NCBI GenBank assembly: GCA_011524855.1
Contig: WTJK01000017.1
Coordinates: 13,054-77,053 of the forward strand
Direction: 5' to 3'
DNA: 64,000 bases
Source: Methanobacteriota archaeon
GTDB taxonomy: Archaea > Thermoplasmatota > Poseidoniia > Poseidoniales > Poseidoniaceae
The translations under genes were made by a program, and so were the position numbers. Shown here in pieces: positions 2,740 to 43,831 of the stretch. How positions within the stretch are numbered: the first letter of the stretch is position 1; each line of letters starts with the position of its first letter. Below the pieces are notes generated by a model. That model had not been told where the DNA came from and did no database searches. It saw nothing but the letters and a program-made list of their open reading frames with translations.

Positions 2740-2750
2740 GGTGTTCACGG

Positions 2751-3542
2751 ATGTCGACGTGGTCAACGACCTTGGGCAGGGTAGCGTTCATCAATTGCGA
2801 CCCGTTGTTCCACGAATTGGACCCTTCCTGGAACGTGCTCGCTGCACCCCCTGCTTGGCTGACAGGTCACGTGCTCCGACGTGATTGCATCGTTGCTCCG
2901 GTACCAGCAGCGGACTATGCCAAGCACCACGATGAACTGGTGCTTCTCCCTGACATCGGTATCGGCTCCGAGGGCGAGGTGGGCAGCGTGCTCTTGTTCG
3001 GAGCACAGCCAATCGAGTCCATGAAAACCATTGCCCTTCCTTCGGATTCTGCGTCGTCCGTGGCGTTGCTCAAACACTTGCTGAAGACGCAGGGTCTTCC
3101 CATGAATTACATCACGACAGGGCCCGATTACGAACTCATGTTGGGCCGTGCGGATGGCGCTCTGCTCATCGGTGACCGCGCATTGGAAGTTGCCAAAGCC
3201 TTCCCCGACATGGTTCGCTTGGACTTGGGTCAAGCGTGGCTGGACCGCCATCAGTTGCCGATGATTTTCGGTGTCTTTGTGGCTCGAAAGGACACGCCCC
3301 TGCACCTTGTTCAAGCCGCTCATCAAGCGCTTCTCGCCAACCTCGAAGGCTTTGAAAACGATTCGGCCAAACGGCACGCCGTGATTGAGTGGTCGATGAC
3401 AAGGTCTGACCTCTCGTTTGAGCGTCTCGACCAGTACTACGGCGAGGTGTTCAACCGATTGAATTCACACCATGTGAAAGGTCTCAAAACCTTCCTCCGT
3501 GAAGCGTGCGAACTGGATGACGAACCCGAGTTTGCATGGTGA
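2751..3542 (+). CDS. mqnA: Chorismate dehydratase MqnA (futalosine pathway).
   Basis: N-terminal 'GRVAFINCDPLFHEL' matches the MqnA signature (I/V-x-x-L-N-C-x-P). Clustered with MqnD and a radical-SAM Mqn enzyme. Confidence 0.7.
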   Translation: MSTWSTTLGRVAFINCDPLFHELDPSWNVLAAPPAWLTGHVLRRDCIVAPVPAADYAKHHDELVLLPDIGIGSEGEVGSVLLFGAQPIESMKTIALPSDSASSVALLKHLLKTQGLPMNYITTGPDYELMLGRADGALLIGDRALEVAKAFPDMVRLDLGQAWLDRHQLPMIFGVFVARKDTPLHLVQAAHQALLANLEGFENDSAKRHAVIEWSMTRSDLSFERLDQYYGEVFNRLNSHHVKGLKTFLREACELDDEPEFAW

Positions 3543-3584
3543 TGAAAACGGTTGGTTCATGAAGGTCGGTTCGGTGGACAAAGC

Positions 3585-4463
3585 ATGGTCGTAGAATTGC
3601 CTTTGGACGAGGACGGAAATAAAATCGTGCGAATTGGCCATAGCCCGGACCCCGACGATGCGTTCATGTTCCACGCCATGACGACGGGCGCCTTTCCTAC
3701 CCCTGGATACACCTTCGTTCATGAACTCCAAGACATCGAGACCTTGAACCACCGTGCGATGAACCAAGACCTCGAAGTGTCAGCGGTCTCCATTCATGCC
3801 TATCCGGAAATCGCCGAGCACTATGCTTTGATGAATTGCGGCGCTTCCATGGGTGAGGGATACGGGCCCATGATCGTGTGCAAACAAGGCGTCACGGAGG
3901 AAGCGGCTCGAGCGGCCACCATCGCCGTGCCCGGCCTCAAAACCAGTGCCTACCTCGGATTGCGCTTGGCATGGGGGGATTGCACGGTTGAGGTTGTGCC
4001 CTTTGACGAGATCATCCCTCGCATTCTTGATGATACGTACCTCTCAGGTTTGATCATTCACGAAGGTCAGTTGACCTACGTCGACCACGATTTGGACGTT
4101 CTCATCGACCTTGGGAAGTGGTGGAACGCCTCGACCGACAACTGGCCCATGCCCCTCGGTGGTAACGTGGTTCGGCGAGACCTGGGCGAACAGGTGATGC
4201 AAGACATCACCCGGTACACCAAGATGAGCATCGAACACGCCATCAATTCACCCGATGATGCCTTGGAGTTTGCCAAAGCCTGGGGGCGAGGAATCGATGA
4301 TGACACCAACAAGGAGTTCGTCGGAATGTACGTGAACGACCGCACCATTGACTACCGGGATGAGGGGCGAGCATCGATCAGGAAATTCATCAACGATGGA
4401 CAAGCCATTGGTATGATTCGACCTGATTTTGACGTCCAGACCATTGACTTCATCGGCGCCTGA
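3585..4463 (+). CDS. mqnD: 1,4-dihydroxy-6-naphthoate synthase MqnD.
   Basis: Motif 'IGHSPDPDDAFMFHAMTTG' matches the MqnD 'GHSPCPNDTFMF' signature. Start is set at an internal ATG (MVVELPL...); an upstream alternative start at 3552 is possible. Confidence 0.75.
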   Translation: MVVELPLDEDGNKIVRIGHSPDPDDAFMFHAMTTGAFPTPGYTFVHELQDIETLNHRAMNQDLEVSAVSIHAYPEIAEHYALMNCGASMGEGYGPMIVCKQGVTEEAARAATIAVPGLKTSAYLGLRLAWGDCTVEVVPFDEIIPRILDDTYLSGLIIHEGQLTYVDHDLDVLIDLGKWWNASTDNWPMPLGGNVVRRDLGEQVMQDITRYTKMSIEHAINSPDDALEFAKAWGRGIDDDTNKEFVGMYVNDRTIDYRDEGRASIRKFINDGQAIGMIRPDFDVQTIDFIGA

Positions 4464-12869: not shown

Positions 12870-13499
12870 TCAACCGTTCAGCCGATCACGCACAGCGTCC
12901 ATGACCAGTCGTCCATCGGTTCGAACTTGTTCTTTGACGCTGTCCAATTCACTGCGGATCGTTTCACCCATCTCGGCCGGCAAACCGTTGAGATTGATTT
13001 CAACGTTGAACAGCGCCCCCTTGGCTGCGGCACTGGCGAGTAATCCCGCTACACCGACATCCGAGACGGCGTTGGCGTTGCCCTTGGCTGCGAGTTCAGG
13101 GAGCATGGCGAGGAGTTCTGCGGCCTTGCATGCGGTCTCGTACGGTACTTCCGCTGCGTGCAAGGTGGCAGCGCGAATGGCCGTACGGCGTGCATTCACT
13201 TCCTCATCGTCGCCTTTCGGAAGTTTGAACGACGCCATCACCTCGTCAAAAGCATCGCTGTCTTGCTGAGCCAAGTCACCCGAGGCACCCATCATCGGGA
13301 TGGCTGAACGTTGAACACGCTCCGCCACGGGCCATCCGTCGGACCACTTCTCGTTGCTCAGGGTGAGGTCGGCCACCATGATGCTCAAGGAAGCGGCTTG
13401 CCCCAAAGCCACGGCAGCAGCGGTGCCTCCTCCCGGGGTGGGGGAGGATGATGCGAGGGCTGCCATGAACTCACGTTGTGTCATTTCCATCCAGTTCAT
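12870..13499 (-). CDS. Formimidoyltetrahydrofolate cyclodeaminase (stand-alone FTCD C-terminal domain).
   Basis: 'MTQREFMAALASSSPTPGGGTAAAVALGQAASL' is a typical cyclodeaminase N-terminus. Its ATG overlaps the stop of the upstream formiminotransferase gene (ATGA). Confidence 0.7.
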   Translation of the reverse strand: MNWMEMTQREFMAALASSSPTPGGGTAAAVALGQAASLSIMVADLTLSNEKWSDGWPVAERVQRSAIPMMGASGDLAQQDSDAFDEVMASFKLPKGDDEEVNARRTAIRAATLHAAEVPYETACKAAELLAMLPELAAKGNANAVSDVGVAGLLASAAAKGALFNVEINLNGLPAEMGETIRSELDSVKEQVRTDGRLVMDAVRDRLNG

Positions 13500-14539
13500 G
13501 CACTCAGCCCCCTGATCGCCCACTCAATGATGCTTTCGTCGGGCTCAAATCGGTGGTGTTCACGCAGTCCCAACCCGTTGATGGCAGCGTTGACCAATTC
13601 GTGCTCGTCCGATGCTTCCGGTAGGTAAAACCGACCGGCTTCCAGCATGGCGTTGAGCGGCACAAGTCCAACGATTTCACTGCCCGGGGTCACGGTGCCA
13701 TGGTCGCCAACGACGCTTTTCACCGTCTCATAGGCGAGGTGCAGTGGGCATGCATCCACATCCAAGAGGTTCATCGATACCTGGGAGATTCCCAATTCTT
13801 CCAACGTCACGCCCATGCCTTGCACGCTTGGGAGCAGACCTTGTGTTCGCATACGCTGGCCCGTGGGTGATTTGAGAAGACGTCCGCTCGAACGAACCAG
13901 CGAACCCACTTTTTTCGCCACGACGGCATCAGGTTCATCCACGTTCACGTTGTAGGCAACGAGAATGGAGCGGGCCCCCACCGTGATGCCTCCGGACCGT
14001 GCGACCGATTCGGACCACACCGAGGCCCCTTCGTCGGGCAACATCGTCGTTGCTTCGTGGCGACGGTTGCTTCCGTCCAATCGCGAGGCCAATTCCTCGT
14101 ATTCTCCTTTGCGAAGGTTCGACAACAACGTGCGTTCCGGGTGGCTCGCTGCGGCTCCGTAGAGAAACAAGGGCACCGCTGCAGCTGCTGCCACATCCTG
14201 CACCGTGCGGCGAGCAAGGTCGGCGCATGCCTCCATGGTGATTCCTTGAAGCGGCACGAAAGGGCAAACATCGACCGCACCCAACCGGGGATGCTCGCCT
14301 TGGTGCGTTCGCATGTCAATTTCATCGATCGCAGCAAGAATCAGTGCGACCGCGCCTTGCTGGACAGGCTGGGGCTCACCTGCGAGCGTGATGACGGTTC
14401 GATGGTAATCCCGATCGGGTTCGACTCCCAACACGTGGCAGCCTGCCACGGCACGTGCGGCTGCGACGATTCGCTCAATTTTGTCATCGTCCCTGCCTTC
14501 GGAAATGTTGGGGACGCACTCGACCAAGGCGTTGCTCAT
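13496..14539 (-). CDS. Glutamate formimidoyltransferase (stand-alone FTCD N-terminal domain).
   Basis: N-terminus 'MSNALVECVPNISEGRD' matches the formiminotransferase signature 'LVECVPNFSEGR'. Confidence 0.8.
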   Translation of the reverse strand: MSNALVECVPNISEGRDDDKIERIVAAARAVAGCHVLGVEPDRDYHRTVITLAGEPQPVQQGAVALILAAIDEIDMRTHQGEHPRLGAVDVCPFVPLQGITMEACADLARRTVQDVAAAAAVPLFLYGAAASHPERTLLSNLRKGEYEELASRLDGSNRRHEATTMLPDEGASVWSESVARSGGITVGARSILVAYNVNVDEPDAVVAKKVGSLVRSSGRLLKSPTGQRMRTQGLLPSVQGMGVTLEELGISQVSMNLLDVDACPLHLAYETVKSVVGDHGTVTPGSEIVGLVPLNAMLEAGRFYLPEASDEHELVNAAINGLGLREHHRFEPDESIIEWAIRGLSA

Positions 14540-14583
14540 GGGCTCGGTCGAGCATTTCCAGTCAATGAACGTTGTTCAACGGT

Positions 14584-15804
14584 TCACGAATACAGGCGCT
14601 CTGGGCTGGAGGTGGTGGATGACTGCGACCGCTTCTTCTCGAGGGTGGCCACAGCGGCCATCATGTCGTTTTGGGTGATGGAGGACCGACCGTCTCGAAT
14701 GGCGGTCATGCCGGCCTCGACACAGGTTGCCTTGAGTTCGGCACCGGAATATCCCTTGGTTTTCTCAACAACACGTTGAAGGTTCAATTTCTTGGTGTTC
14801 ATGGTTTTGAGGTGGACCTCGAGGATGGATTTCCGAGAACCGTCTTCAGGAATGGGGATCTCGATGACCCTGTCGAACCGTCCTGGGCGGAGCAAGGCAT
14901 CGTCCAAGATATCGGGTCGATTGGTGGCAGCGATAATTTTCACGTCCTTGAGTGCATCAAACCCGTCGAGCTCGGCGAGCAATTGCATCAACGTACGCTG
15001 AACTTCCCGGTCGCCGCTGGTTGAGCCGTCCAAGCGCTTGGCGCCAATGGCATCGATCTCGTCAAGGAAAATGATGCTCGGGGCCTTTTCCTTGGCGAGA
15101 GAAAAAAGCTCCCGTACCATGCGGCCACCCTCTCCAATGTATTTTTGAGCAAGCTCACTTCCTACCATGCGGATAAAGGTCGCTTCGGTTTGGTTTGCCA
15201 CGGCTTTGGCCAGCAACGTCTTCCCGCATCCCGGTGGGCCAACGAGCAACACCCCCTTGGGGGGTGTGATTCCCACCTTCTGGAACAGTTCAGGCTTCAC
15301 AAGTGGTAATTCAATGGCCTCGCGAACAAGCGAGACTTCGGTGTCGAGGCCGGCAATGTCGGCATAGGTGGTGGTGGGTTTGCCGACCATTTCAGCACCG
15401 CTGACCATCGGGTCCCATGCCTCGTGAAGAACTTCAATCACCGAGAGGCTGTCCTGATTGAGTGCGACACGCGTGCCAGGTTTGAGTTTGTCAGGGTCGA
15501 GTCGTTGGTTCAGGGACACTTGGAACACCGTTCCGTTCGACGATCGCACAATGGCACGTTCATGGTCGAGCACATCTTGGAGATGGCCAATGATGAGCGG
15601 TGGCATTTTCATGATGTTCACGTTTTCTTCGAGCCGGTCGACTTTCTTCCGAAGACCTCGAATTTCGGTTTCGAGCGCATTCCGTTCCGTGATCAGGTTT
15701 TGAGATTCTTCACGGAGATCGAGCAACGAGGCTTCAAGTTGCTTCAACTCGTCCTCAGGAAGCCGGTTGACTGCGTTGTCCGTCCGCTCAACCTCTGTGC
15801 CCAT
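14584..15804 (-). CDS. pan: Proteasome-activating nucleotidase PAN (AAA+ ATPase).
   Basis: N-terminal coiled coil, then Walker A 'GPPGCGKTLLAKAVA', then 'IIFLDEIDAIGAKR' and 'ATNRPDILDDALLRPGRFDR'. Start is set at the internal ATG (MGTEVERTD), giving 406 aa. Confidence 0.9.
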   Translation of the reverse strand: MGTEVERTDNAVNRLPEDELKQLEASLLDLREESQNLITERNALETEIRGLRKKVDRLEENVNIMKMPPLIIGHLQDVLDHERAIVRSSNGTVFQVSLNQRLDPDKLKPGTRVALNQDSLSVIEVLHEAWDPMVSGAEMVGKPTTTYADIAGLDTEVSLVREAIELPLVKPELFQKVGITPPKGVLLVGPPGCGKTLLAKAVANQTEATFIRMVGSELAQKYIGEGGRMVRELFSLAKEKAPSIIFLDEIDAIGAKRLDGSTSGDREVQRTLMQLLAELDGFDALKDVKIIAATNRPDILDDALLRPGRFDRVIEIPIPEDGSRKSILEVHLKTMNTKKLNLQRVVEKTKGYSGAELKATCVEAGMTAIRDGRSSITQNDMMAAVATLEKKRSQSSTTSSPERLYS

Positions 15805-15898
15805 GGGCGAACCTGCCGGCGAGCATCTAAAAGAATTGACATCGCCTTCGTGCAACGGTGTCAAAGAGTTCAAAGACGGTCGTGGAAAAAAAACCGAC

Positions 15899-16378
15899 AT
15901 GGGCGAATGTGAATTGTGCGGTGCCGTCAAGGTCGGTGTGCGACAGGTGCCAACGGGAAAAACCACCGTCACCGCATGCGCTCGTTGTGTGGAAAAAATG
16001 AATCTGGGACCGAAAAAGGAGGCGCCTGGCCTTGCCCGAGCGCGCACCATGCGTGCTGCGCCTCGGCGTTCGTCCTCTTCCACGTTCATGGCATCTGGAC
16101 CAAAGGAACTGGCCGATGATTTTCACAAACGAATCGCCAGCGCACGGTCGGCTCAAAACATGTCCCAGCAACAGCTTGCGAAAAAAATGGCAGAAACCGT
16201 GAACGTGATCAAGTCTGCAGAATCAGGGAAACGACCGACCGACACCGTTGTTCGCAAGTTCGAGCGTATTCTGTCTATCGAATTGATGGTGGCACGTTCT
16301 GCAGAGGAAACCAGGCATGTTTCAGCCGGACCACAGCGCGGCATGACCTTCGGTGATTACCTCAACAACTTGGAGTGA
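15899..16378 (+). CDS. Archaeal multiprotein-bridging factor 1 (aMBF1): zinc ribbon plus HTH (XRE).
   Basis: 'MGECELCGAVK...VTACARCVEKM' zinc ribbon, then 'SARSAQNMSQQQLAKKMAETVNVIKSAESGKRPTDTVVRKFERIL' HTH region. Confidence 0.75.
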   Translation: MGECELCGAVKVGVRQVPTGKTTVTACARCVEKMNLGPKKEAPGLARARTMRAAPRRSSSSTFMASGPKELADDFHKRIASARSAQNMSQQQLAKKMAETVNVIKSAESGKRPTDTVVRKFERILSIELMVARSAEETRHVSAGPQRGMTFGDYLNNLE

Positions 16379-23263: not shown

Positions 23264-25303
23264 ATGAGCATGGCACATGATTGGGGGCCGCTTCGACAAT
23301 CCATTCTCGAAGGCATCCCGGAACATCTTCCACCATCAACGCCCCTGGACTCGAGCGTTGACCATGCCCCCGCCCGAAAACAAGTCCTCTCGAACGAGGA
23401 GAAACACTTGGCCGTGTGCAATGCGCTGCGATACATTCCACCTGCTCACCACGAGGTTTTGTACCCCGAATTTATGGATGAATTGGAGACCTTCGGTCGG
23501 ATTTTGATGCGACGCTATCGCCCCACCGAACATCCGATGCGAGCCCACCCGATCAACGCATATCCAGCCAAGTCGCCCCAAGCCGCTGCCATCATGCTCA
23601 TGATTCAAAACAACCTTGACCCCGATGTTGCTCAATTTCCACATGAATTGATCACGTACGGCGGAAACGGTTCCGTGTTCCAAAACTGGGCCCAATATCG
23701 ATTGGCCATGAAGTACCTCAGCGAGATGGATGAGGACCAAACGTTGGTCATGTACTCGGGCCACCCCATGGGTTTGTTTCCTTCCTCGCCTGAAGCACCG
23801 AGGGTGGTGGTGACCAACGGGATGGTGATTCCCAACCACTCCTCGCCTACGGATTATGAGCGCATGAATGCCCTTGGCGTCACACAGTACGGCCAAATGA
23901 CGGCGGGGTCGTACATGTACATTGGCCCGCAGGGAATTGTGCACGGGACCACCATCACGCTGTTGAACGCAGCGCGAATGCACCTCGGCCTCGACGATGA
24001 CGCAACGTTGGCCGGCGTCACCTTCGTCACCAGCGGGTTGGGCGGCATGTCCGGTGCCCAAGCCAAAGCTGCGACCATCGCTGGGGCGGCGTGCATCATT
24101 GCCGAAGCCAACGCCCATGCGGCACACAAGCGACATGAACAGGGATGGTTGACCGATGTTACGGACGACGTGGACCAAGCCATCGATCTCATGACCGAGG
24201 CAGCGAGCACGGGTCAAACGATTTCAGTTGGCTACATCGGCAACATCGTTCGTCTTTGGGAACGGCTGGTTGAGCGGAACGTGAAGGTGGACCTGGGCAG
24301 CGACCAGACCAGTTTGCACAATCCTTTCCAGGGAGGCTATTTCCCGGTTGACCGCTCCTTTGAGGCCTCGACCGTGATGATGTCGTCCGACCCCGAAGCC
24401 TTTGAGGATGCTGTCCGCGCAACGCTCCGTCGGCACGCAGATGCCATCAACACCATGGTCAGCCGCGGGATGTACTTTTGGGATTACGGCAATGCCTTTC
24501 TCTTGGAGGCCTCTCGAGCGGGCGCCGATGTCCTTTCAGCCGATGGTTCGTTCCGATACCCGAGCTACGTGGAGGACATCATGGGGCCGTTGTGCTTTGA
24601 CTACGGTTTCGGGCCATACCGATGGATTTGTACCAGCGGGCTGGCATCGGATTTAGAAGAAACCGACCGCATTGCGGAATCGGTGTTGGTCGCCATGCTC
24701 GAGGAAGCGCCTCCCGACATTCGTCGCCAAATTCAAGACAACCTCATTTGGATCCGGCAAGCAGGGAGCAACTCCCTGGTCGTCGGGAGCCAAGCTCGGA
24801 TCCTCTACGCCGATGACGAGGGTCGTCGACGTATCGCACAAGCCATGAATCAAGCCGTTCGAGACGGCCGGTTGGACGGGCCGGTGGTCCTTGGTCGCGA
24901 CCACCATGACGTGTCCGGGACCGACAGCCCCTACCGTGAAACAGCGAACATTCGAGACGGGTCGATGTTTACGGCGGACATGGCCGTGCAGAACGTGATT
25001 GGCGACGCCTTCCGAGGTGCAACATGGGTCAGCATCCACAACGGCGGCGGTGTTGGTTGGGGTGAAGTGATGAACGGCGGGTTTGGATTGTTGCTGGACG
25101 GCTCTACCGAGGCCGATCGTAAACTCGACAGCATGCTTCATTGGGATGTGAACAACGGTGTTGCACGCCGAGCTTGGGCACGAAACCCCGGTGCGGAGTT
25201 TGCGATTCGCCGAGCCATGGAGGCCAACGACCGATTGACCGTCACCATGCCCCATCACGTCGAGGAACAGGTGTTTCGGCAACACGGAGGGCGTCTGTCT
25301 TGA
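23264..25303 (+). CDS. hutU: Urocanate hydratase (urocanase).
   Basis: Long archaeal/eukaryal-type urocanase with conserved 'GGMSGAQ' and 'HNGGGVGWGEV' regions. Adjacent to hutH. Confidence 0.9.
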   Translation: MSMAHDWGPLRQSILEGIPEHLPPSTPLDSSVDHAPARKQVLSNEEKHLAVCNALRYIPPAHHEVLYPEFMDELETFGRILMRRYRPTEHPMRAHPINAYPAKSPQAAAIMLMIQNNLDPDVAQFPHELITYGGNGSVFQNWAQYRLAMKYLSEMDEDQTLVMYSGHPMGLFPSSPEAPRVVVTNGMVIPNHSSPTDYERMNALGVTQYGQMTAGSYMYIGPQGIVHGTTITLLNAARMHLGLDDDATLAGVTFVTSGLGGMSGAQAKAATIAGAACIIAEANAHAAHKRHEQGWLTDVTDDVDQAIDLMTEAASTGQTISVGYIGNIVRLWERLVERNVKVDLGSDQTSLHNPFQGGYFPVDRSFEASTVMMSSDPEAFEDAVRATLRRHADAINTMVSRGMYFWDYGNAFLLEASRAGADVLSADGSFRYPSYVEDIMGPLCFDYGFGPYRWICTSGLASDLEETDRIAESVLVAMLEEAPPDIRRQIQDNLIWIRQAGSNSLVVGSQARILYADDEGRRRIAQAMNQAVRDGRLDGPVVLGRDHHDVSGTDSPYRETANIRDGSMFTADMAVQNVIGDAFRGATWVSIHNGGGVGWGEVMNGGFGLLLDGSTEADRKLDSMLHWDVNNGVARRAWARNPGAEFAIRRAMEANDRLTVTMPHHVEEQVFRQHGGRLS

Positions 25304-26853
25304 CCAAATCAACGGTTTACGTTGACGGCGTCACACTGACGGTGACAGATGTGATGATGGTGGCTCATCGTGGTATGCAGGTGGAGGTTTCTGAAGATGC
25401 TTGGCCCAAGATTCATGCTGCCCGCGCCGTGGTCGACCGGATCGTCGCGAACAACGAAACCGTTTACGGCATCAACACCGGCTTCGGTGCATTGGTGCAT
25501 CAGCGCATCTCTCCGGACGATCTCGCTCAACTCCAAGTCAACCTGATCCGTTCTCATGCCACTGCCATCGGTCCAACCATGTCGGTGCCTGAGGTTCGAG
25601 CCATGATGTTGATTCGCTTGAATTCTCTTTGCAAAGGCCACTCTGGCGTGCACCCCGATGCCATTCAGCAACTGGTCTTGTTTCTCAACGAGGGCCTCCA
25701 CCCCGAAGTTCCACGGATCGGCAGCCTGGGTGCGAGCGGCGACCTTGCACCGTTGTCTCACCTTGCACTTGCGTTAATCGGAGAGGGACGGCTGGTGACA
25801 GAGGGCGGTGAAATTCGACCCACCAAAGAGGTGCTGTATGAACGAGGTGTGCTTCCACTCCAGCTCACGGCAAAAGACGGGTTGTCGCTCATCAATGGAA
25901 CCTCCCAAATGTCCGCCTACATGGCGACATCCGTTGCTCGACTGTCCGAATTGCTCGTGCTTGCTGACGTGGTGCTGGCGATGTCCATGGAAGCCCGTCA
26001 GTGCAGTTTAACACCGTTTCGAGAAGAAGTCCACAACGTTCGCCCACATACCGGACAGCGGATCGTTGCGCAGCGCGTTCGCACGATGCTTGATGGCTCC
26101 CCCATCATGGCAGGCCATGCTGATTGCGATCGCGTCCAAGACCCTTACTCCTTCCGATGCGCGCCCCAGGTCCATGGTGCGGTTTACGAGTCGTTCCTTG
26201 ACGTGCAACGAACCATTGACGTTGAGTTGAACAGCACCACGGACAACCCGCTCATTTTCCCGACCCCCGACCAGCCGGGCTCTCACGAAGTCGTGAGTCA
26301 GGGCAACTTCCATGGTGAAGTGCTCGCCATCCGAGCGGACCAGATGGCCTTGGGATTGTTTGAATTGGCCTCGATCAGCGAACGTCGGATGGACCAAATG
26401 TTGGACCGGTCCCGCAGCGGTCTCCCCGCGTTTTTGGCAAAAAATTCTGGGCTCGAATCCGGATTGATGATTGTGCAATACGTCGCAGGAGCATCGCTTG
26501 CTGAACTGCGCGGTCACGCCTCGCCAAGGTCAGCGTTCTCGACGTCGACATCCGCCGGCCAAGAAGACCATGTCAGTTTGGGGGCAACGGCCAATCACAA
26601 CCTTCTGGTGGCCACGGAGCGTTTGGCGGAGGTTCTCGCATGCGAAGCCCTCATCGCCTCAGAAGCTCTGACACACCAGCCCGTCCAACCGGTGGGCCAT
26701 GTCGCAGGTATGGTTGACTTGGTGCGAGCGATTGCTCCGCCTCTCAATGGGGATCGGAGTACCTCAGACGAACTCATCTCCATCGCCCAAGCCATGACGG
26801 GCGGGGGCTGGCTGGCTCGCCTTGAAGCTGAACACGGTCGCCTACCTCGATGA
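25300..26853 (+). CDS. hutH: Histidine ammonia-lyase.
   Basis: 'GSLGASGDLAPLSHLA' is the Ala-Ser-Gly MIO-forming motif. A TTG start overlaps the hutU stop (TTGA). The ORF-track start at 25141 is probably too far upstream. Confidence 0.9.
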   Translation: MTKSTVYVDGVTLTVTDVMMVAHRGMQVEVSEDAWPKIHAARAVVDRIVANNETVYGINTGFGALVHQRISPDDLAQLQVNLIRSHATAIGPTMSVPEVRAMMLIRLNSLCKGHSGVHPDAIQQLVLFLNEGLHPEVPRIGSLGASGDLAPLSHLALALIGEGRLVTEGGEIRPTKEVLYERGVLPLQLTAKDGLSLINGTSQMSAYMATSVARLSELLVLADVVLAMSMEARQCSLTPFREEVHNVRPHTGQRIVAQRVRTMLDGSPIMAGHADCDRVQDPYSFRCAPQVHGAVYESFLDVQRTIDVELNSTTDNPLIFPTPDQPGSHEVVSQGNFHGEVLAIRADQMALGLFELASISERRMDQMLDRSRSGLPAFLAKNSGLESGLMIVQYVAGASLAELRGHASPRSAFSTSTSAGQEDHVSLGATANHNLLVATERLAEVLACEALIASEALTHQPVQPVGHVAGMVDLVRAIAPPLNGDRSTSDELISIAQAMTGGGWLARLEAEHGRLPR

Positions 26854-27729
26854 GGTCCTGCTCAAGATGCTGGCGGATGTTTCATCAACATCAACGAGGT
26901 TGAACAAGCGATACGACCAGCGTTCCAATTCCGCAACGGTGAACACGTCCGTTGAGGCGTGCAGGTGCAACAGGGCTTCGGTTGCTGTACGGATGCGCTC
27001 TTCCACCGCCTGGTAAGTGGCGTACGCTTCGTCGTTGTTGCTCATGCTCAGGGCCGGTTCAAGTTCGGTGAGATCGAACCCCATACGACGCCACTGAAGC
27101 ATACGTTTTGACAGCAGACCTCGGTGAAACCCCAATTTCGGTAAGGAAACGAGTTGGGCCAGCACAGGTTGGTGAACTTCATGCTCGCTGATCGACTGAG
27201 GTTGTCCTTCGACCGGTGCGATCTTGTTGCTCGTGGATGGTTTTGGTGAGCTGGGTTCGTTGACCGTTGAGGCGATGAGGGGGGACATACGCATCCAAAC
27301 ATTGGATGGAAAGGTCAGCGGGTCGAGCACGAGATGGATTGAAAGCCGGTGGAGTTGGCTTAATTCCGTGAGCCATGCCATCAATGCAAACACGGGAACC
27401 GGCCCTTCTTCATCAAACACCGCATCAAGGCCTTCGAGGATGACCACGCCTTCGTTGTGCTCTGGCGCCCATGAACCCAGGGAAGCCCGTATCGCATCCG
27501 TTGACGGGAAGACCGAATCGTTGGTTTCGAGGTGCGTCAGCCACCGAAACGTGGTCATGTGCGGGCTCAAATGGCGAAGCAGCCTTCGCGTGGGTGAACG
27601 GCTGAGAATGAGGCGGGGTCGACCTTCTTCCACGGACAATTCGTCGTAGATGACCATCAGTTTGTCAAAGCGAGTGATGTGAAGGGCGTTCACCGTGCCC
27701 GCCGTCACCACCATGGTTGACGATGGCAA
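26842..27729 (-). CDS. DUF835-like domain protein (N-terminal DUF835-like domain plus an uncharacterised C-terminal domain).
   Basis: 'FRWLTHLE...GVVILEGLDAVFDEEGPVPVFALMAWLTEL...LVLDP' resembles the DUF835 pattern. It is divergent from the EF-hand protein gene. Confidence 0.35.
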   Translation of the reverse strand: MPSSTMVVTAGTVNALHITRFDKLMVIYDELSVEEGRPRLILSRSPTRRLLRHLSPHMTTFRWLTHLETNDSVFPSTDAIRASLGSWAPEHNEGVVILEGLDAVFDEEGPVPVFALMAWLTELSQLHRLSIHLVLDPLTFPSNVWMRMSPLIASTVNEPSSPKPSTSNKIAPVEGQPQSISEHEVHQPVLAQLVSLPKLGFHRGLLSKRMLQWRRMGFDLTELEPALSMSNNDEAYATYQAVEERIRTATEALLHLHASTDVFTVAELERWSYRLFNLVDVDETSASILSRTSSR

Positions 27730-27814
27730 GTCCTGTCTAAAGAAATACCTCCGACAGTGCCACGCCCGTCAAGGATTATATCCGAAGTGGTCCTCCTCGC
27801 CTTTGGGTGCTCTG

Positions 27815-29611
27815 ATGGCAGACAAGGATGACAACAAAGTCGGGATGGCCGAATGCGGTTCATGCCGCGCCGTGATTCCCATCGATTCCAAAGCGTGCCC
27901 CGAATGCAACACCTCCTTCCAAGGCGTTTCTGACGAAGCCCTTGGCGAGTGCGGTGCGTGCCAGAGCCTGGTCCCCCTCGATTCCACCCGATGCCCAGAA
28001 TGCAGTGTTCTGTTTGTGGCGGACGATGTCGTGGACGTACTGCGCCAGTGGGTTTCCAACACGGGCATCGACTTGCGAAAACTCTTCGACAAGTTCGACG
28101 AAAACGGTGACGGGATGATCGACTCTTCGGAGTTGCGCGAAGGACTGCTCAGCCTCAACCTCGCCGACCTCCCGCCCAGTCAAGTGGAACGCTTGGTGAA
28201 GGAAATTGATGAAGACGACAACGGCGTGATCGACCTGGATGAGTTCATTGACATCCTCTCATCGGGCGAATCGGATGCGTCGGACGATGCAACCACAGAA
28301 GACGTGGGTGAAGAGGAAGAACCGTCCGCTGACGAAGAGCACGACAACGCTGATGCGGTCAGCGAGGATGCGGATGAACCATCCGATGCTGATGCCGAGG
28401 AGGACGAAGGCCAAGACGATGGTGAGGCGGATGACACTGGCGATGAGGTTGCTGAACCCGAGGACGAGCCAGCGGAGGAAGTTGAGGCTGTTGACGATGC
28501 CGTCGATGAAGGCGACATGTCCCACAAAGAGGTCGTTTCGCTCAAGAATCCACTCCTTGATTTGGCGAACATGATGGATGAGATGGGCGTCTCTGCTCAA
28601 CGCGTGTTCAATGACCTTGACCGCGATGGCAACGGCATTATTTCCAAAGACGAGCTGATGAAACTCATCGAGTCCGACTACGGTGAAGACATGGACATGG
28701 AAACCGTTGAGATGCTGATGGAGCAGCTCGATGACGACGGCGATGGCTCCGTTGACCTAGCAGAATTTTACGCCTCGCTCGAGGAGCTTGACGACCACGA
28801 GGACGCCGTTGAAGAGACCGTGGAGGAGGACTACTTCCCCACGCCCATGCAAAAGCGGATGATGTCCAAAGCTTGGAACGACGCAGTCTGGCCCATCCTC
28901 CACACGGGTTTTGCCTTGATGTTGATCCTCGTGTTGGTCAACGCGCTTGTTGGTCCGGTTGACGGAACAGGTGGGGCTGTTGTGTACGAGCCGATGGACA
29001 ACGGCCTCGTTCCGAGCGGTTTGAACCCCGGTGATGTCTTCCCTTGTGACGAAAAATACCAACAGGGAGGTTGTTCGAATTCCTTGACCCTGTTCAGTGG
29101 AGAAAACGGAGCTTCATCCATGCCAAAGGGGTTCTATCTCGATGGCATCATCTTCATGATTCTGAGTTTGATTGGTCTGGGTGGTTCGTTGTTCATGCAC
29201 CTGGTCCGCGTTCCTGCTTGGCGCGCACGTGCGAGGGCCATGCGTGAGTTCGAGGCGGACAAAGCAGATGCCGCAAAAGAAGCAACCGACGAGTCCGTCG
29301 ACAATGACGACACGGACGAGCACGAAGATTCAGACGATGAGGAGAGAGATGACCTTGTTGATGAAGAAGATGTTGGTGTCGAAGAAGAAGTTGATGCCGA
29401 CGAGGACATGGGAGAAGACGACGACGAGGGTGAGACGGACGCCGAAGACGATGAAATCGATGTGGGCTCCCACATCGGCCTGGTCTTTGATGACGAGGAA
29501 GTCTTCGGGACCATTGTTGAATTCGATGACGAAGAAGGAACCGTGACCATCGAAGAGGACGGCAGCGGGGATTTGGTCACCGGTTATCAGGACGATATGT
29601 TTCTTGAGTGA
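27815..29611 (+). CDS. Very acidic membrane protein with an N-terminal double zinc ribbon and four EF-hand loops.
   Basis: Zinc ribbons 'CGSCRAV..CPEC' and 'CGACQSL..CPEC'. EF loops 'DENGDGMIDSSEL', 'DEDDNGVIDLDEF', 'DRDGNGIISKDEL' and 'DDDGDGSVDLAEF'. Two TM helices and long D/E tracts. Confidence 0.6.
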   Translation: MADKDDNKVGMAECGSCRAVIPIDSKACPECNTSFQGVSDEALGECGACQSLVPLDSTRCPECSVLFVADDVVDVLRQWVSNTGIDLRKLFDKFDENGDGMIDSSELREGLLSLNLADLPPSQVERLVKEIDEDDNGVIDLDEFIDILSSGESDASDDATTEDVGEEEEPSADEEHDNADAVSEDADEPSDADAEEDEGQDDGEADDTGDEVAEPEDEPAEEVEAVDDAVDEGDMSHKEVVSLKNPLLDLANMMDEMGVSAQRVFNDLDRDGNGIISKDELMKLIESDYGEDMDMETVEMLMEQLDDDGDGSVDLAEFYASLEELDDHEDAVEETVEEDYFPTPMQKRMMSKAWNDAVWPILHTGFALMLILVLVNALVGPVDGTGGAVVYEPMDNGLVPSGLNPGDVFPCDEKYQQGGCSNSLTLFSGENGASSMPKGFYLDGIIFMILSLIGLGGSLFMHLVRVPAWRARARAMREFEADKADAAKEATDESVDNDDTDEHEDSDDEERDDLVDEEDVGVEEEVDADEDMGEDDDEGETDAEDDEIDVGSHIGLVFDDEEVFGTIVEFDDEEGTVTIEEDGSGDLVTGYQDDMFLE

Positions 29612-30075: not shown

Positions 30076-30152
30076 TGGTGGGCTCGGAGAGAATCGAACT
30101 CTCGATCTTTGCCATGTCAAGGCAACGTCATAAACCCCTAGACCACGAGCCC
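30076..30152 (-). tRNA. tRNA-Val (anticodon GAC) with genomically encoded 3' CCA.
   Basis: Reverse complement is GGGCUCGUGGUCUAGGGGUUUAUGACGUUGCCUUGACAUGGCAAAGAUCGAGAGUUCGAUUCUCUCCGAGCCCACCA. It has a 7-bp acceptor stem, GG in the D-loop, anticodon loop UUGACAU and T-loop UUCGAUU. Confidence 0.85.
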
Positions 30153-40816: not shown

Positions 40817-40990
40817 ATGCCAAAAGTATCGTTGGACATGCCAACCGAACTCATGGAGGACTTGCGTATGCACGTTGGTGACGACAAAAAATTCGTGAGT
40901 TTTGCCGACGCTGTGCGTACGGCATGTCGGAAAATGTTGGATCATCTCGACGAAGTGGATCGACGCCATGGGCGAGGTGAACTCTCATGA
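40817..40990 (+). CDS. Ribbon-helix-helix (CopG-like) small protein.
   Basis: 57 aa. 'MPKVSLDMPTELMEDLRMHV...FVSFADAVRTACRKMLD' has an RHH-like beta-alpha-alpha pattern. Its stop overlaps the folE ATG (ATGA). Confidence 0.45.
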   Translation: MPKVSLDMPTELMEDLRMHVGDDKKFVSFADAVRTACRKMLDHLDEVDRRHGRGELS

Positions 40991-41562
40991 CGACCAAAGA
41001 CGAGGCCATGACCGCCGTTCGAACACTTCTTGCCTACCTTGAGGGAGAAGGCAATGCAAACAGAGAGGGTTTGGAAGCCACACCTCAACGGGTGATTGAT
41101 TCCTGGGGTGAAGTGTTCTCAGGGTACGGGCAGTCTGCTGCTGAGCTGCTCAACGCCACCTTCAACGGTGAAGGTTACGATGGGATCGTGTTGTTGCGAA
41201 ACATTGAGTTCCATTCCACCTGTGAACACCACCTTCAACCGTTCCGTGGTCGTGCTCATGTGGCATACATTCCCGTTGAACGCATCGTTGGCATCAGCAA
41301 GCTTGCTCGACTCGTTGACCTGCACGCCCGCCGCTTGCAGAACCAAGAGCGTATCACCAAATCAGTCGCGGACGACCTTGAAACGCACTTGCACCCGTTG
41401 GGTGCTGCTGTGATTTTGGAAGCCTCTCATGGATGCATGCAATGTCGCGGGGTGGCCAAACAGGAAGCGATCATGACAACGTCCGCCATGCGTGGTGTGT
41501 TTTTCGATAAAAGTGAGGCCCGGTCTGAACTGATGCAATTGATTCAACAACCGGTTCTCTGA
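40987..41562 (+). CDS. folE: GTP cyclohydrolase I (FolE).
   Basis: 'FHSTCEHHLQPF' and 'ISKLARLVDLHARRLQNQERIT' match FolE active-site motifs. Confidence 0.85.
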   Translation: MTTKDEAMTAVRTLLAYLEGEGNANREGLEATPQRVIDSWGEVFSGYGQSAAELLNATFNGEGYDGIVLLRNIEFHSTCEHHLQPFRGRAHVAYIPVERIVGISKLARLVDLHARRLQNQERITKSVADDLETHLHPLGAAVILEASHGCMQCRGVAKQEAIMTTSAMRGVFFDKSEARSELMQLIQQPVL

Positions 41563-41563
41563 G

Positions 41564-42226
41564 GTGAAGGGTATGGAGGCGTGTTCCAGAGGTGGTGGCC
41601 CGTTGGGCGATGACCCCGCCGACCTTGCGGCAGAATACAACATCGTGGAAATATTCCACAGCGTGCAAGGGGAAGGCTACCATGCTGGGATTCCGCACGT
41701 GTTCATTCGCTTTGGCCGATGCAACCTTCGGTGCGAATGGTGCGACACCGATTTTGACACCTTTGATGTGATGTCTGCCTTGGATGTGCTCGGTGAGGTG
41801 TTGAAGTTCCCTTGCCGACGGGTGATCTTCACCGGAGGTGAGCCGATGCTGAACGACCTCTGGCCACTGCAGCGCTTGCTGAAAGCACGGGGATACAACC
41901 TCGCCGTGGAGACCAACGGCACGGTGGAAATTCCTGAGGGCCTGATGGATTGGGTGTGTGTGTCTCCAAAAGACCAGGTCTACCCCAATGTGACCATCCG
42001 CCAGCGGACGGGCGATGAACTCAAATGCGTGTATGTTGGTCAATCGCTTTCAATGTACGACGAATTGGTCGATGGTTTCAGCCATCGGTTTCTTCAACCG
42101 TTGTACGACGAATCGGCTACGGTTGAAGCGAACGGCGTGAGTTTTGCCTTAACAGAAGCCGTGGTGAAAAACAACCCCCCATGGCGGTTGTCGTTGCAGA
42201 CCCACAAATGGATGGGGGTGGACTGA
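41564..42226 (+). CDS. queE: 7-carboxy-7-deazaguanine synthase QueE (radical SAM).
   Basis: 'QGEGYHAGIPHVFIRFGRCNLRCEWCDT' is the QueE-type cluster motif. Confidence 0.8.
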   Translation: MKGMEACSRGGGPLGDDPADLAAEYNIVEIFHSVQGEGYHAGIPHVFIRFGRCNLRCEWCDTDFDTFDVMSALDVLGEVLKFPCRRVIFTGGEPMLNDLWPLQRLLKARGYNLAVETNGTVEIPEGLMDWVCVSPKDQVYPNVTIRQRTGDELKCVYVGQSLSMYDELVDGFSHRFLQPLYDESATVEANGVSFALTEAVVKNNPPWRLSLQTHKWMGVD

Positions 42227-42227
42227 G

Positions 42228-43385
42228 GTGAACCAAGCTGTCATGGCGCTCAGCGGTGGCATGGATTCCACCGCTTTGTTGCTGCATCTGCTTGCGAGCG
42301 ACCACCACGTCACGTGCCTCTCCTTCGATTACGGGCAACAACATCGGTTGGAACTCGATAAAGCCGAGGAACTCATTCTCCTCCTCCGTGAGAACGGCCA
42401 CGCCGTCACACACAGAACTGTGGACCTCTCATCGGCCATGGGCTTGTTCTCAAGCCATCTGTTGGCCACCGGAGATGACGTTCCGGAGGGGCACTACGAA
42501 GAAGAGGCCATGAAGGCGACGGTGGTGCCAAATCGGAACGCTATCTTTGCATCCCTGTTGTACGGCACGGCCCTGTCGATTGCCAATGAGACCGATGTCG
42601 ATGTCGCCGTGGCGCTTGGGGTGCATTCTGGCGATCACGCTATTTATCCAGATTGCCGACCGGAATTCTACGACGCACTGGGTGAAGCCTTCCGCATCGG
42701 AAACTGGGGCGCGGAACGCATCACGTTCGCACTCCCTTACCTTGAGATGGACAAAGCTGGCATCTTGTTTGATGCCGAGAGGACGACCGAAGCATTGGGC
42801 CTTGACTTTGACGACGTGTTCGCGAGGACGTTAACCACCTATGCCCCAACCAAAGACGGGAAAAGCCACGGAAGAACAGGCTCAGACATTGAGCGTATCC
42901 TCGCTTTCCATGCCGTCGGTCGGGAGGACCCGTTCTCCTACGTTGGAGGTTGGAAGGCAGTTCTCGAGCACGCACTGGAAGAGGATCGCCGTCATCGTGC
43001 AAAGGCACTGGCCGAGCGGCTTACTCCACTCCAGTGGCATGTGACGCAAGAAGCAGGAACGGAACGTGCGTTCACGGGAGAATTTTGGGACACCTCTTTG
43101 GAAGGATCCTACGCCTGTGTTTGCTGCGGCAAGCTGTTGTTTGACCACACACAAAAGTTCAGTTCAGGGTGCGGTTGGCCATCGTTTCACACCGAGCTCG
43201 ACCGCGCCCGTATTCACCGTTTGGTTGACCGAACGCACGGCATGGTTCGAACAGAGGTGCGCTGTTCGACGTGTGACGCCCACTTGGGTCACGTCTTCGA
43301 TGATGGCCCACGCCAACACGGCGGTGAACGTTATTGCATCAATTCAGCGTCATTGACATTCATTTCCAAGGAGGAACAAGCATGA
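42228..43385 (+). CDS. queC: 7-cyano-7-deazaguanine synthase QueC domain (Zn-site cysteines absent) fused to methionine-R-sulfoxide reductase MsrB.
   Basis: N-terminus 'AVMALSGGMDSTALLL...FDYGQQHRLEL' is the QueC PP-loop. C-terminus 'GTERAFTGEF...CVCCGKLLF...WPSFH...CSTCDAHLGHVF...RYCINSASL' is MsrB. The QueC C-terminal region reads 'TTYAPTKDGKSHGRTGSD' where the Cys ligands normally sit. Confidence 0.75.
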   Translation: MNQAVMALSGGMDSTALLLHLLASDHHVTCLSFDYGQQHRLELDKAEELILLLRENGHAVTHRTVDLSSAMGLFSSHLLATGDDVPEGHYEEEAMKATVVPNRNAIFASLLYGTALSIANETDVDVAVALGVHSGDHAIYPDCRPEFYDALGEAFRIGNWGAERITFALPYLEMDKAGILFDAERTTEALGLDFDDVFARTLTTYAPTKDGKSHGRTGSDIERILAFHAVGREDPFSYVGGWKAVLEHALEEDRRHRAKALAERLTPLQWHVTQEAGTERAFTGEFWDTSLEGSYACVCCGKLLFDHTQKFSSGCGWPSFHTELDRARIHRLVDRTHGMVRTEVRCSTCDAHLGHVFDDGPRQHGGERYCINSASLTFISKEEQA

Positions 43386-43831
43386 CCACCACCATTCGCC
43401 GTTTTGTTGAGACCGATACAGGCCATCGCGTCCCCAATCACAAGTCAAAATGCCGCCACATGCACGGCCATCGCTATCGGTTCGAAGCTGAGATTTCAGG
43501 TGACGTTGTGGCGGAAACTGGGGTCTCAGAAGAAGGCATGCTCATGGATTTTTCAGACGTGAGTTCCATTTTGATGGAACATGTTCACGACGTGGTCGAC
43601 CATGCCTTTGTTGTGTATTCGGGAGATACGGATGCTCGCTCCGCGCTTGAGCTCATGGGGACTGAACATCGAACCGTTGTGGTCGACTTTATCCCCACAG
43701 CAGAAAACCTTGCCAAGTGGGCGTTTGAGCAGGTCGCACCCCATGTGCAATCGGTGTACGGTAACCGGTTGCGTCTCGTTGCCATGCATTGCCGAGAAAC
43801 CCCCAAATCCGTGGCCACTTGGCGGCCTTGA
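43382..43831 (+). CDS. queD: 6-carboxy-5,6,7,8-tetrahydropterin synthase QueD.
   Basis: 'ETDTGHRVPNHKSKCRHMHGHRYRFE' is the QueD/PTPS Cys-His motif. The ATG overlaps the queC-msrB stop. Confidence 0.8.
   Translation: MTTTIRRFVETDTGHRVPNHKSKCRHMHGHRYRFEAEISGDVVAETGVSEEGMLMDFSDVSSILMEHVHDVVDHAFVVYSGDTDARSALELMGTEHRTVVVDFIPTAENLAKWAFEQVAPHVQSVYGNRLRLVAMHCRETPKSVATWRP

Follow-up and report, generated by a model that had tools for sequence, protein, structure and literature searches.

In the window, a stretch of 64,000 nucleotides on contig WTJK01000017.1 of a Poseidoniaceae archaeon (GenBank assembly GCA_011524855.1), a single open reading frame (ORF) joined a QueC domain, the enzyme of 7-cyano-7-deazaguanine (preQ0) synthesis, to a methionine-R-sulfoxide reductase (MsrB) domain. 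The fused gene was located in a forward-strand operon in the order 57-aa ORF, folE, queE, queC/msrB and queD, in which the genes were separated by 1-nt gaps or overlapped by 4 nt (ATGA). In the QueC half, the cysteines that bind zinc in canonical members were replaced at all four positions, and the catalytic motifs were kept. The features of the fused gene were as follows.

42228..43385, forward strand: fused queC-msrB ORF, 385 aa, no interruption
42228..42989, forward strand: QueC domain, residues 1-254 (Pfam QueC at 3-229)
42252-42269, forward strand: PP-loop SGGMDS, residues 9-14, QueC motif
42330-42353, forward strand: YGQQHRLE, residues 35-42, QueC motif
42525-42539, forward strand: VPNRN, residues 100-104, QueC motif
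42645-42656, forward strand: YPDC, residues 140-143, QueC motif
42837..42887, forward strand: former zinc loop, residues 204-220, placed by alignments to Escherichia coli QueC and to Cys-containing relatives
42948..43019, forward strand: long helix, residues 241-264, the end of QueC plus the linker (AlphaFold2 model)
43020..43364, forward strand: MsrB domain, residues 265-379 (PF01641, TIGR00357, PDB 3cez)
43116-43118 and 43125-43127, forward strand: first zinc CxxC pair of MsrB, C297 and C300
43170-43172, forward strand: resolving Cys of MsrB, C315 (GCGWPSF)
43263-43265 and 43272-43274, forward strand: second zinc CxxC pair of MsrB, C346 and C349
43335-43337, forward strand: catalytic Cys of MsrB, C370 (RYCINS)

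The ORF started with GTG, 1 base past the stop codon of queE. This start was favoured over an internal ATG (Met6), because residues 2-5 were conserved in homologues and formed strand beta-1 in the structural model; A4 was nearly invariant among the homologues. In Pfam, QueC (PF06508) matched residues 3-229 with an E value of 2.1e-36 (125.9 bits against a cut-off of 22) and SelR/MsrB (PF01641) matched residues 265-379 with an E value of 4.4e-48, both far beyond chance. In NCBIfam, the MsrB equivalog TIGR00357 scored 173.1 bits, over its cut-off of 113.05, and the QueC equivalog TIGR00364 was the top non-MsrB match of the protein at 121.2 bits, under its cut-off of 150.3. In an AlphaFold2 model, for which 53 family members were used (mean predicted local distance difference test score, pLDDT, 81.8), two domains were joined via the long helix of residues 241-264. 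When the domains were compared with solved structures by Foldseek, the N-terminal one matched both solved QueCs (2pg3, E 3.7e-9; 3bl5, E 1.3e-8), and the C-terminal one matched MsrB 3cez (E 4.5e-15, 56% identity, target-normalised TM-score 0.86). The same C-terminal helix extension was present on the stand-alone QueCs P0122, P0124 and P0125, and unfused Poseidoniales QueCs terminated at the linker helix.

Canonical QueC is characterised by the motifs SGGxDS, YxQxHxxE, VPxRN and YPDC and by a C(x)8CxxCxxC zinc motif, as described in a family study of 2026 (PMC13329287). The window protein carried SGGMDSTALLL, FDYGQQHRLEL, TTYAPTKDGKSHGRTGSD and RYCINS, and the zinc motif was absent from its QueC domain. 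The four ligand positions were occupied by T204, H214, T217 and D220. The first of them was set by a global alignment, in which C188 of E. coli QueC (sequence from NC_000913) aligned on T204, and the other three were placed by alignment with the nearest Cys-containing relatives. These relatives read T-C-Y-x-P-D-x-x-G-x-S-C-G-K-C-G-S-C-x-E-R in the loop, where the window protein read T-T-Y-A-P-T-K-D-G-K-S-H-G-R-T-G-S-D-I-E-R. No Cys was found in residues 196-232 in any of the 121 sequences compared (120 homologous fusions plus the window protein).

Conservation was measured in 53 fusion proteins with 62-89% identity to the window protein. The replaced loop was the best-conserved portion of the C-terminal region of QueC, with G211, S213, G215, T217, G218, S219, D220, E222, R223, L225, A226 and F227 all invariant, and the pLDDT was 81-90 across residues 201-230 of the model. 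On this pattern, the loop is not degenerate. H214 was variable among homologues and mostly Ser, therefore a new His/Asp metal site is unlikely. SGGMDS, YGQQHRLE, VPNRN, YPDC, Y205 and K176 were invariant in the fusion family, as were M6, M12 in the P-loop and M95 beside VPNRN; C143 was the sole invariant Cys of the QueC domain. Y205 is the counterpart of E. coli QueC Y189, which adjoins the first zinc Cys and whose replacement by Ala, like the exchanges Y35A, R99A and Y131A, inactivated the enzyme in vivo (PMC13329287). As judged from the alignments, the window QueC has lost the zinc motif yet keeps the other four QueC motifs and the essential Tyr. Because the zinc motif and the equivalog score failed while the catalytic motifs and the gene context agreed with QueC, the domain was filed as a zinc-site-free QueC variant and not as a canonical member.

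The initial annotation had described one 385-aa frame without stop or internal start between a QueC and a complete MsrB domain, replacement of all four QueC zinc cysteines, and a folE, queE and queD context that implied preQ0 synthesis. This description held: the frame was continuous with no ATG between the domains, both domains were recognised by Pfam with the MsrB Cys set invariant in 121 sequences, the alignment with characterised QueC confirmed the ligand loss and located no Cys elsewhere in residues 196-232, and the flanking genes were verified with Pfam and NCBIfam. The doubt that the domain might be another PP-loop paralogue was settled in favour of a QueC type by the full set of catalytic motifs, the preQ0 operon, and the defence models, which matched weakly and in the P-loop.

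The MsrB half was ordinary. C297/C300, C346/C349, C315 and C370 were invariant in all 121 sequences, and the domain matched MsrB of Burkholderia pseudomallei (PDB 3cez) in phmmer with an E value of 4.9e-44 and all Cys aligned. It shares the catalytic RYCINS Cys, the GCGWPSF Cys and both CxxC pairs with B. pseudomallei 3CEZ and E. coli 6SYM, and is therefore complete in its MsrB features, which are those predicted for a canonical two-cysteine zinc MsrB. Unlike these two proteins, it is joined to the C-terminus of QueC. Among the matched solved structures, the fusion partner of MsrB was MsrA (PDB 5FA9, 3E0M, 7E43; PilB MsrA/MsrB proteins).

The distribution of the fusion was evaluated in related proteins and genomes. 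A continuous fused ORF was found in 120 protein clusters with 62-90% identity to the window protein, and the linker residues W242, L246, A249 and L265 were conserved as protein among the 53 fusion proteins. The fused proteins P0045, P0053, P0055, P0104 and P0115 are named only 'peptide-methionine (R)-S-oxide reductase MsrB' at NCBI, and the fused proteins are named '7-cyano-7-deazaguanine synthase' at JGI. The genome scan took one genome per GTDB species and gave 80 loci, with about 16 kb seen per genome. One Poseidoniales metagenome-assembled genome (MAG), L143, was set aside, leaving 79 of the 80 loci usable: its QueC frame was broken to a 90-aa fragment with msrB and queD intact, and the gene is a pseudogene or else was misassembled. 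The archaeal folE-queE-queC context was seen in 63 of the 80 loci, from Poseidoniaceae, Thalassarchaeaceae and Marine Group III (MGIII), and the linkage of the que genes was kept in these 63 related loci. Two of them came from MAGs labelled as bacteria (L093, Rhodobiaceae; L139, Phycisphaerae). Both carried a full Poseidoniales-type operon (small ORF, folE, queE, queC, msrB, queD) plus SpoU, at archaeal identity levels; they were counted among the 63, being probably archaeal contigs misbinned into bacterial MAGs.

Three arrangements of queC and msrB were revealed in the 63 loci. The two formed a single ORF of 362-388 aa in 30 loci and two genes in 22, and msrB was absent in the remaining 11, where queD followed directly 3' of queC; the MGIII loci also contained no queD. 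In the survey of related genomes which the initial annotation had called for, the fusion was thus found in 120 protein clusters and 30 species-level genomes. The two-gene state was genuine. At these junctions the queC stop codon overlapped or abutted the ATG of msrB (TAATG, TGAATG, ATGA), for example at L083:8784-8788 and L085:8780-8783 (in the locus series L083-L162), and the separate MsrB had its own N-terminal extension. Altogether, msrB adjoined or was fused to queC in 52 of the 63 Poseidoniales/MGIII loci, and its place was always between queC and queD. The fused, separate and absent states were interleaved on a neighbour-joining QueC-domain tree drawn with no support values, and more than one msrB state occurred within each of both Poseidoniales families. 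The interleaving indicated that fusion or fission occurred several times. The feature that needs explanation is therefore the placement of msrB between queC and queD, and the fusion is a secondary and easy step which takes the loss of one stop codon.

The absence of the zinc site extended beyond the fusion. It was missing in all 79 usable genome loci, with one MGIII exception that kept the first Cys; this was the single-cell genome L144, whose QueC read C-S-S-D at the four positions. The archaeal loop followed the consensus T-S-Y...G-R-S-S-G-x-S/T-G-A/S-D-V-E-R-I-L-A-F. Besides the archaea, 17 loci from marine Planctomycetota (Pirellulaceae, Mariniblastus, Planctomycetaceae) encoded a stand-alone zinc-free QueC of 249-273 aa (L088, L095, L101, L111, L113, L116, L121, L132, L137, L140, L147, L149, L151, L153, L156, L157 and L162). 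These proteins were of the archaeal type (GRSHGLTGSDVERILAFH) and 53-59% identical to the window domain in tblastn, and no que genes were found near them in the 17 loci of about 16 kb each. These features suggest horizontal transfer, possibly by a virus route via archaeal-type carriers such as L166-L171.

An exhaustive HMMER search over 1.84 billion representative proteins yielded further stand-alone zinc-free QueCs, and others interrupted by an intein or fused to an HNH domain. In the genome scan, the best identity to the stand-alone relatives P0122 and P0124 did not exceed 55%. Inteins, some with LAGLIDADG, were observed in P0127, P0129, P0132, P0142 and P0146, and an HNH endonuclease domain preceded P0141; these intein- and HNH-bearing relatives comprised both zinc-free and cysteine-containing types. 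The presence of such elements in QueC relatives points to mobile or viral origins. The largest reservoir of zinc-free QueC was in viral contigs. In IMG/VR, 327 stretches encoded relatives of the zinc-free P0133 and at least 600 encoded relatives of the window protein, with the MsrB part in none. All of the 80 inspected P0133 relatives had S-D-S-S at the ligand positions together with all catalytic motifs, and FolE, QueE or QueD was encoded within 6 kb in 58 of them. Among 80 inspected viral relatives of the window protein, 68 had S-D-S-S, 10 ended in Asp as in the archaeal type (6 S-S-S-D, 3 S-S-T-D and 1 S-N-T-D), and 2 had C-C-C-C.

In a neighbour-joining tree rooted with E. coli QueC and drawn with no support values, all zinc-free QueCs were placed in one terminal subfamily with a few C-C-C-C members inside. 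The zinc site may have been lost on two separate occasions, as suggested by the two replacement patterns. The nearest Cys-containing relatives already had the longer loop and a C-terminal GRxDP..Y...W..VL..AL extension. In three otherwise canonical QueCs, P0241, P0244 and P0252, Asp replaced the fourth Cys (C-C-C-D). From its sequence, this state is a plausible intermediate of zinc-site decay, and the C-S-S-D of L144 possibly is another. The zinc-free QueC is not peculiar to the msrB fusion; it forms a subfamily of Poseidoniales/MGIII, marine Planctomycetota and viruses. The view of the initial annotation, an unusual zinc-free QueC welded to MsrB, thus stood, with two shifts of emphasis: the zinc-free type is widespread, and the two genes are often adjacent and unfused. 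No description of a zinc-free or cysteine-free QueC, or of queC-msrB linkage or fusion, was found in the literature searched, including PMC13329287 and PMC10516641, and the literature on QueC with Poseidoniales or Planctomycetes and on archaeosine in Marine Group II contained nothing relevant.

One member of the subfamily could be connected with a chemical product. The QueC of Flavobacterium phage immuto had no zinc Cys and was 47-48% identical to the window QueC domain. This phage encodes FolE, QueD, QueE, QueC, QueF and DpdA3, and all guanines of its DNA are replaced by 7-(formylamino)methyl-7-deazaguanine (fdPreQ1), a derivative of preQ1 and hence of preQ0 (PMC10516641). The modified base is an indirect sign that a zinc-free QueC makes the nitrile. 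The QueCs of phage immuto and of other viruses have in common with the window QueC the absence of zinc Cys, the same catalytic motifs and the same C-terminal GRxDP..Y extension, and that of immuto likewise belongs to a FolE/QueD/QueE/QueC pathway. They differ in that the viral ligand positions are mostly S-D-S-S and not S/T-x-T/S-D, and that the viral proteins are never fused to MsrB or beside it. The viral product is delivered to DNA as fdPreQ1, whereas the product of the window enzyme presumably goes to tRNA.

The window protein was also compared with better-known relatives. With canonical QueC (E. coli b0444, Bacillus subtilis 3BL5, Pectobacterium 2PG3) it shares the fold, the PP-loop, YxQxHxxE, VPxRN, YPDC, the essential Tyr and the operon partners queD and queE. 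It differs in the replaced zinc motif (T, H, T, D), a loop 3 residues longer than that of E. coli, a helical extension of about 35 residues, the MsrB fusion, and the TIGR00364 score under the cut-off. Gat-QueC, from archaea and phages, is likewise a natural QueC fusion of the deazaguanine pathway, for archaeosine or dG+ synthesis (PMC10516641). Its partner is a class-II amidotransferase of the same chemistry, whereas the partner in the window repairs proteins and is not known to take part in the pathway. As QueC and SelR were the sole Pfam domains and there was no GATase domain, identity with Gat-QueC was rejected. Cap9 of type IV CBASS (cyclic oligonucleotide-based antiphage signalling system; PDB 9NTO) and QatC have the same PP-loop fold, and Cap9 was a weak match in structure and sequence. 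Both retain cysteine-rich motifs and are partnered with a CD-NTase (cGAS/DncV-like nucleotidyltransferase) or with QatABD (PMC13329287), whereas the window protein belongs to a biosynthetic operon. Such a defence identity was rejected as well: the PADLOC 'QueC' model PDLC00911 gave only 42 bits over residues 2-42 (the P-loop), and the neighbours were biosynthetic and ribosomal. The third candidate was QueC* of Campylobacter phage CP220 (CPT_0114), a QueC homologue in a deazaguanine pathway and the proposed synthase of 7-amido-7-deazaguanine (ADG). QueC* keeps the four Cys and has altered catalytic motifs (YGSNH, FPDC); in the window protein it is the other way round, with YGQQH, YPDC and no Cys motif, and this identity was also rejected.

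The other genes of the operon were assigned as listed.

40817..40990, forward strand: conserved 57-aa ORF, MPKVSLDMPTELMEDLRMHVGDDKKFVSFADAVRTACRKMLDHLDEVDRRHGRGELS, head of the operon; its stop codon overlaps the folE ATG (ATGA)
40987..41562, forward strand: folE, GTP cyclohydrolase I of type IA, first step to preQ0 (PF01227, E 2e-63)
41564..42226, forward strand: queE, radical-SAM (S-adenosylmethionine) 7-carboxy-7-deazaguanine synthase with a CNLRCEWC motif (PF04055)
43382..43831, forward strand: queD, 6-carboxytetrahydropterin synthase with CRHMHGH as CxxxHGH motif (PF01242, E 3.3e-26)

In NCBIfam, the folE product scored 226 bits with NF006825 (FolE), over the cut-off of 174. The top matches of the queE product were all QueE models (TIGR04508, E 3.7e-40), yet under their cut-offs, and the queD product gave 82 bits with TIGR03367, slightly under the cut-off of 89. 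The ATG of queD overlapped the TGA of the fused ORF (ATGA). The 57-aa ORF was present upstream of folE at 65-81% identity (tblastn) in nearly all Poseidoniales loci and was called as a gene in the nearest relative; it had no match in Pfam and no sequence match in the PDB. Its strand-helix-helix pattern suggests a ribbon-helix-helix-like protein, possibly a regulator of the operon. In the nearest relative, 90% identical and on a polished 2.09-Mb contig, the synteny was identical and the same continuous fused gene was found. Downstream of the operon, a SpoU-type methyltransferase gene and archaeal ribosomal protein genes were located on the opposite strand.

Elsewhere in the window, a tRNA-Val(GAC) gene at 30076-30152 on the reverse strand had G at position 15, where archaeosine usually occurs, and its CCA end was encoded. 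A tRNA-guanine transglycosylase was looked for by tblastn with E. coli Tgt, and none was found in the window or in the 80 related loci of about 16 kb each. Other genes of the window, at 1543-4463, 12870-16089, 23264-26853 and 27695-29611, comprised futalosine-type menaquinone genes (a radical-SAM CofH/MqnC-like gene and two VitK2_biosynth genes), histidine-utilisation genes (formiminotransferase-cyclodeaminase, urocanase and histidine ammonia-lyase), a gene for a proteasome-activating AAA ATPase, and a gene for a 638-aa protein with a double zinc ribbon and several EF-hand pairs.

With moderate confidence, we regard the fused gene as encoding a bifunctional protein, in which a zinc-independent preQ0 synthase and an independently acting MsrB became one chain when the stop codon between the two adjacent operon genes was lost. 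In euryarchaea, preQ0 is converted to archaeosine. FolE, QueD and QueE of the same operon would supply 7-carboxy-7-deazaguanine to the QueC domain, which would convert it to preQ0 with ATP and ammonia and without zinc; the preQ0 would presumably end up in tRNA as archaeosine, at G15. In the C-terminal helical domain, a conserved non-metal loop, T/S...S/H-G-x-T/S-G-S/A-D-I/V-E-R-I-L-A-F, is proposed to have taken the place of the Cys4-zinc site. The C-terminal helical extension, already seen in the nearest Cys-containing relatives, probably made zinc dispensable. The MsrB domain would reduce methionine-R-sulfoxide. With msrB directly 3' of queC and the stop and start codons overlapping, the queC stop codon would have been lost in several lineages to give the fusion. 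Direct observation covers the domain identities, the lost ligands and kept motifs, the operon, the three arrangements of queC and msrB, and where the subfamily occurs; that the enzyme is active without zinc, that the two activities do not depend on each other and that archaeosine is finally made are predictions. Several points weigh against this account. Zinc is said to be required for QueC function (PMC13329287), and the TIGR00364 score lay under the cut-off. Neither the window nor the flanks of the related loci (about 16 kb seen per genome) yielded a gene for arcTGT (archaeal tRNA-guanine transglycosylase) or archaeosine synthase. The host of phage immuto may supply preQ0 too. In addition, the persistence of msrB at queC in 52 of 63 loci could mean a functional link, which a reading of two independent enzymes leaves unexplained.

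Under such a link, MsrB would have stayed next to QueC, or fused to it, for its use to the pathway; it might repair oxidised Met of the Cys-poor QueC (M6, M12, M95) or of QueE. The loss of the oxidisable Zn-thiolate site and the recruitment of MsrB would then both belong to an oxidant hardening of the preQ0 pathway in sunlit surface water. The constant position of msrB between queC and queD, the rise or persistence of the fusion in several lineages, and the invariance of M6, M12 and M95 with C143 as the only invariant Cys of the QueC domain would agree with a link. However, M12 and M95 were also present in zinc-free QueCs with no MsrB (phage immuto, P0133, P0122), in 11 related genomes this same QueC type stood in an operon that lacked msrB, MsrB was nearby in no viral or planctomycete locus, and the MsrB domain was an unmodified canonical one, so that coupling is quite unlikely in our estimate. 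Its most far-reaching form, in which zinc loss and MsrB recruitment are one adaptation to photo-oxidative stress and the fused MsrB acts in cis on the Met-bearing active-site loops, is still a little less probable; if true, it would give the first example of a repair enzyme tied by fusion to an enzyme of nucleoside modification. Loss of the cysteines as an adaptation to very zinc-poor surface seawater was given slightly more weight than coupling and is nevertheless unlikely. Zinc-free QueC occurs in Poseidoniales/MGIII, in Pirellulaceae/Mariniblastus and in many viral contigs, one of them from a Baltic Sea phage, as sparing of zinc would have it, but horizontal transfer among co-occurring organisms could equally give the marine pattern, and the same operon keeps three zinc enzymes, namely a type-I FolE (not the zinc-independent FolE2), QueD with CxxxHGH, and MsrB with its CxxC pairs.

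A change of chemistry was also considered, in which the zinc-less QueC domain stops at the amide (ADG) like the proposed QueC*, or ligates something else. The preQ0-forming QueC is recognised by its zinc motif as a hallmark (PMC13329287), ADG synthesis has been proposed for one QueC homologue (PMC10516641), and the equivalog score of the window protein fell short. But CP220 QueC* keeps the four Cys and differs in the catalytic motifs, the opposite of the window protein, therefore the amide-stopping alternative does not fit the zinc-free QueCs; every residue whose mutation inactivates E. coli QueC is kept, the operon is the standard preQ0 set, and phage immuto with its zinc-free QueC has a preQ1-derived base, for which the nitrile is required. 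We consider an altered reaction very unlikely. Finally, an error in sequencing or assembly could have mimicked the fusion by dropping a stop codon or by a frameshift between two genes; a single base would do, as queC and msrB of relatives are parted only by an overlapping stop and start. This explanation is practically negligible, given the continuous ORF in 120 independent protein clusters from many assemblies, 30 species-level genomes and the polished 2.09-Mb contig (90% identity), the linker residues conserved as protein, and the lack of an ATG between the domains at which a separate MsrB could start.

The zinc-free subfamily lets the role of zinc in QueC, and whether it is purely structural, be tested directly, and its members are metal-free scaffolds for the rare carboxylate-to-nitrile chemistry. 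Owing to the naming of fused proteins as MsrB only by the NCBI pipeline (PGAP) and the miss by TIGR00364, the QueC function is hidden in Poseidoniales genomes annotated in this way, and automated surveys would mistakenly count these abundant archaea (Marine Group II) among the organisms without preQ0 synthesis. The three states, queC alone, queC with msrB, and the fused gene, form a natural series for how operon neighbours become fusion proteins. The fusion is a lineage-specific curiosity, and the more useful result is a large, previously unremarked subfamily of zinc-free QueC.

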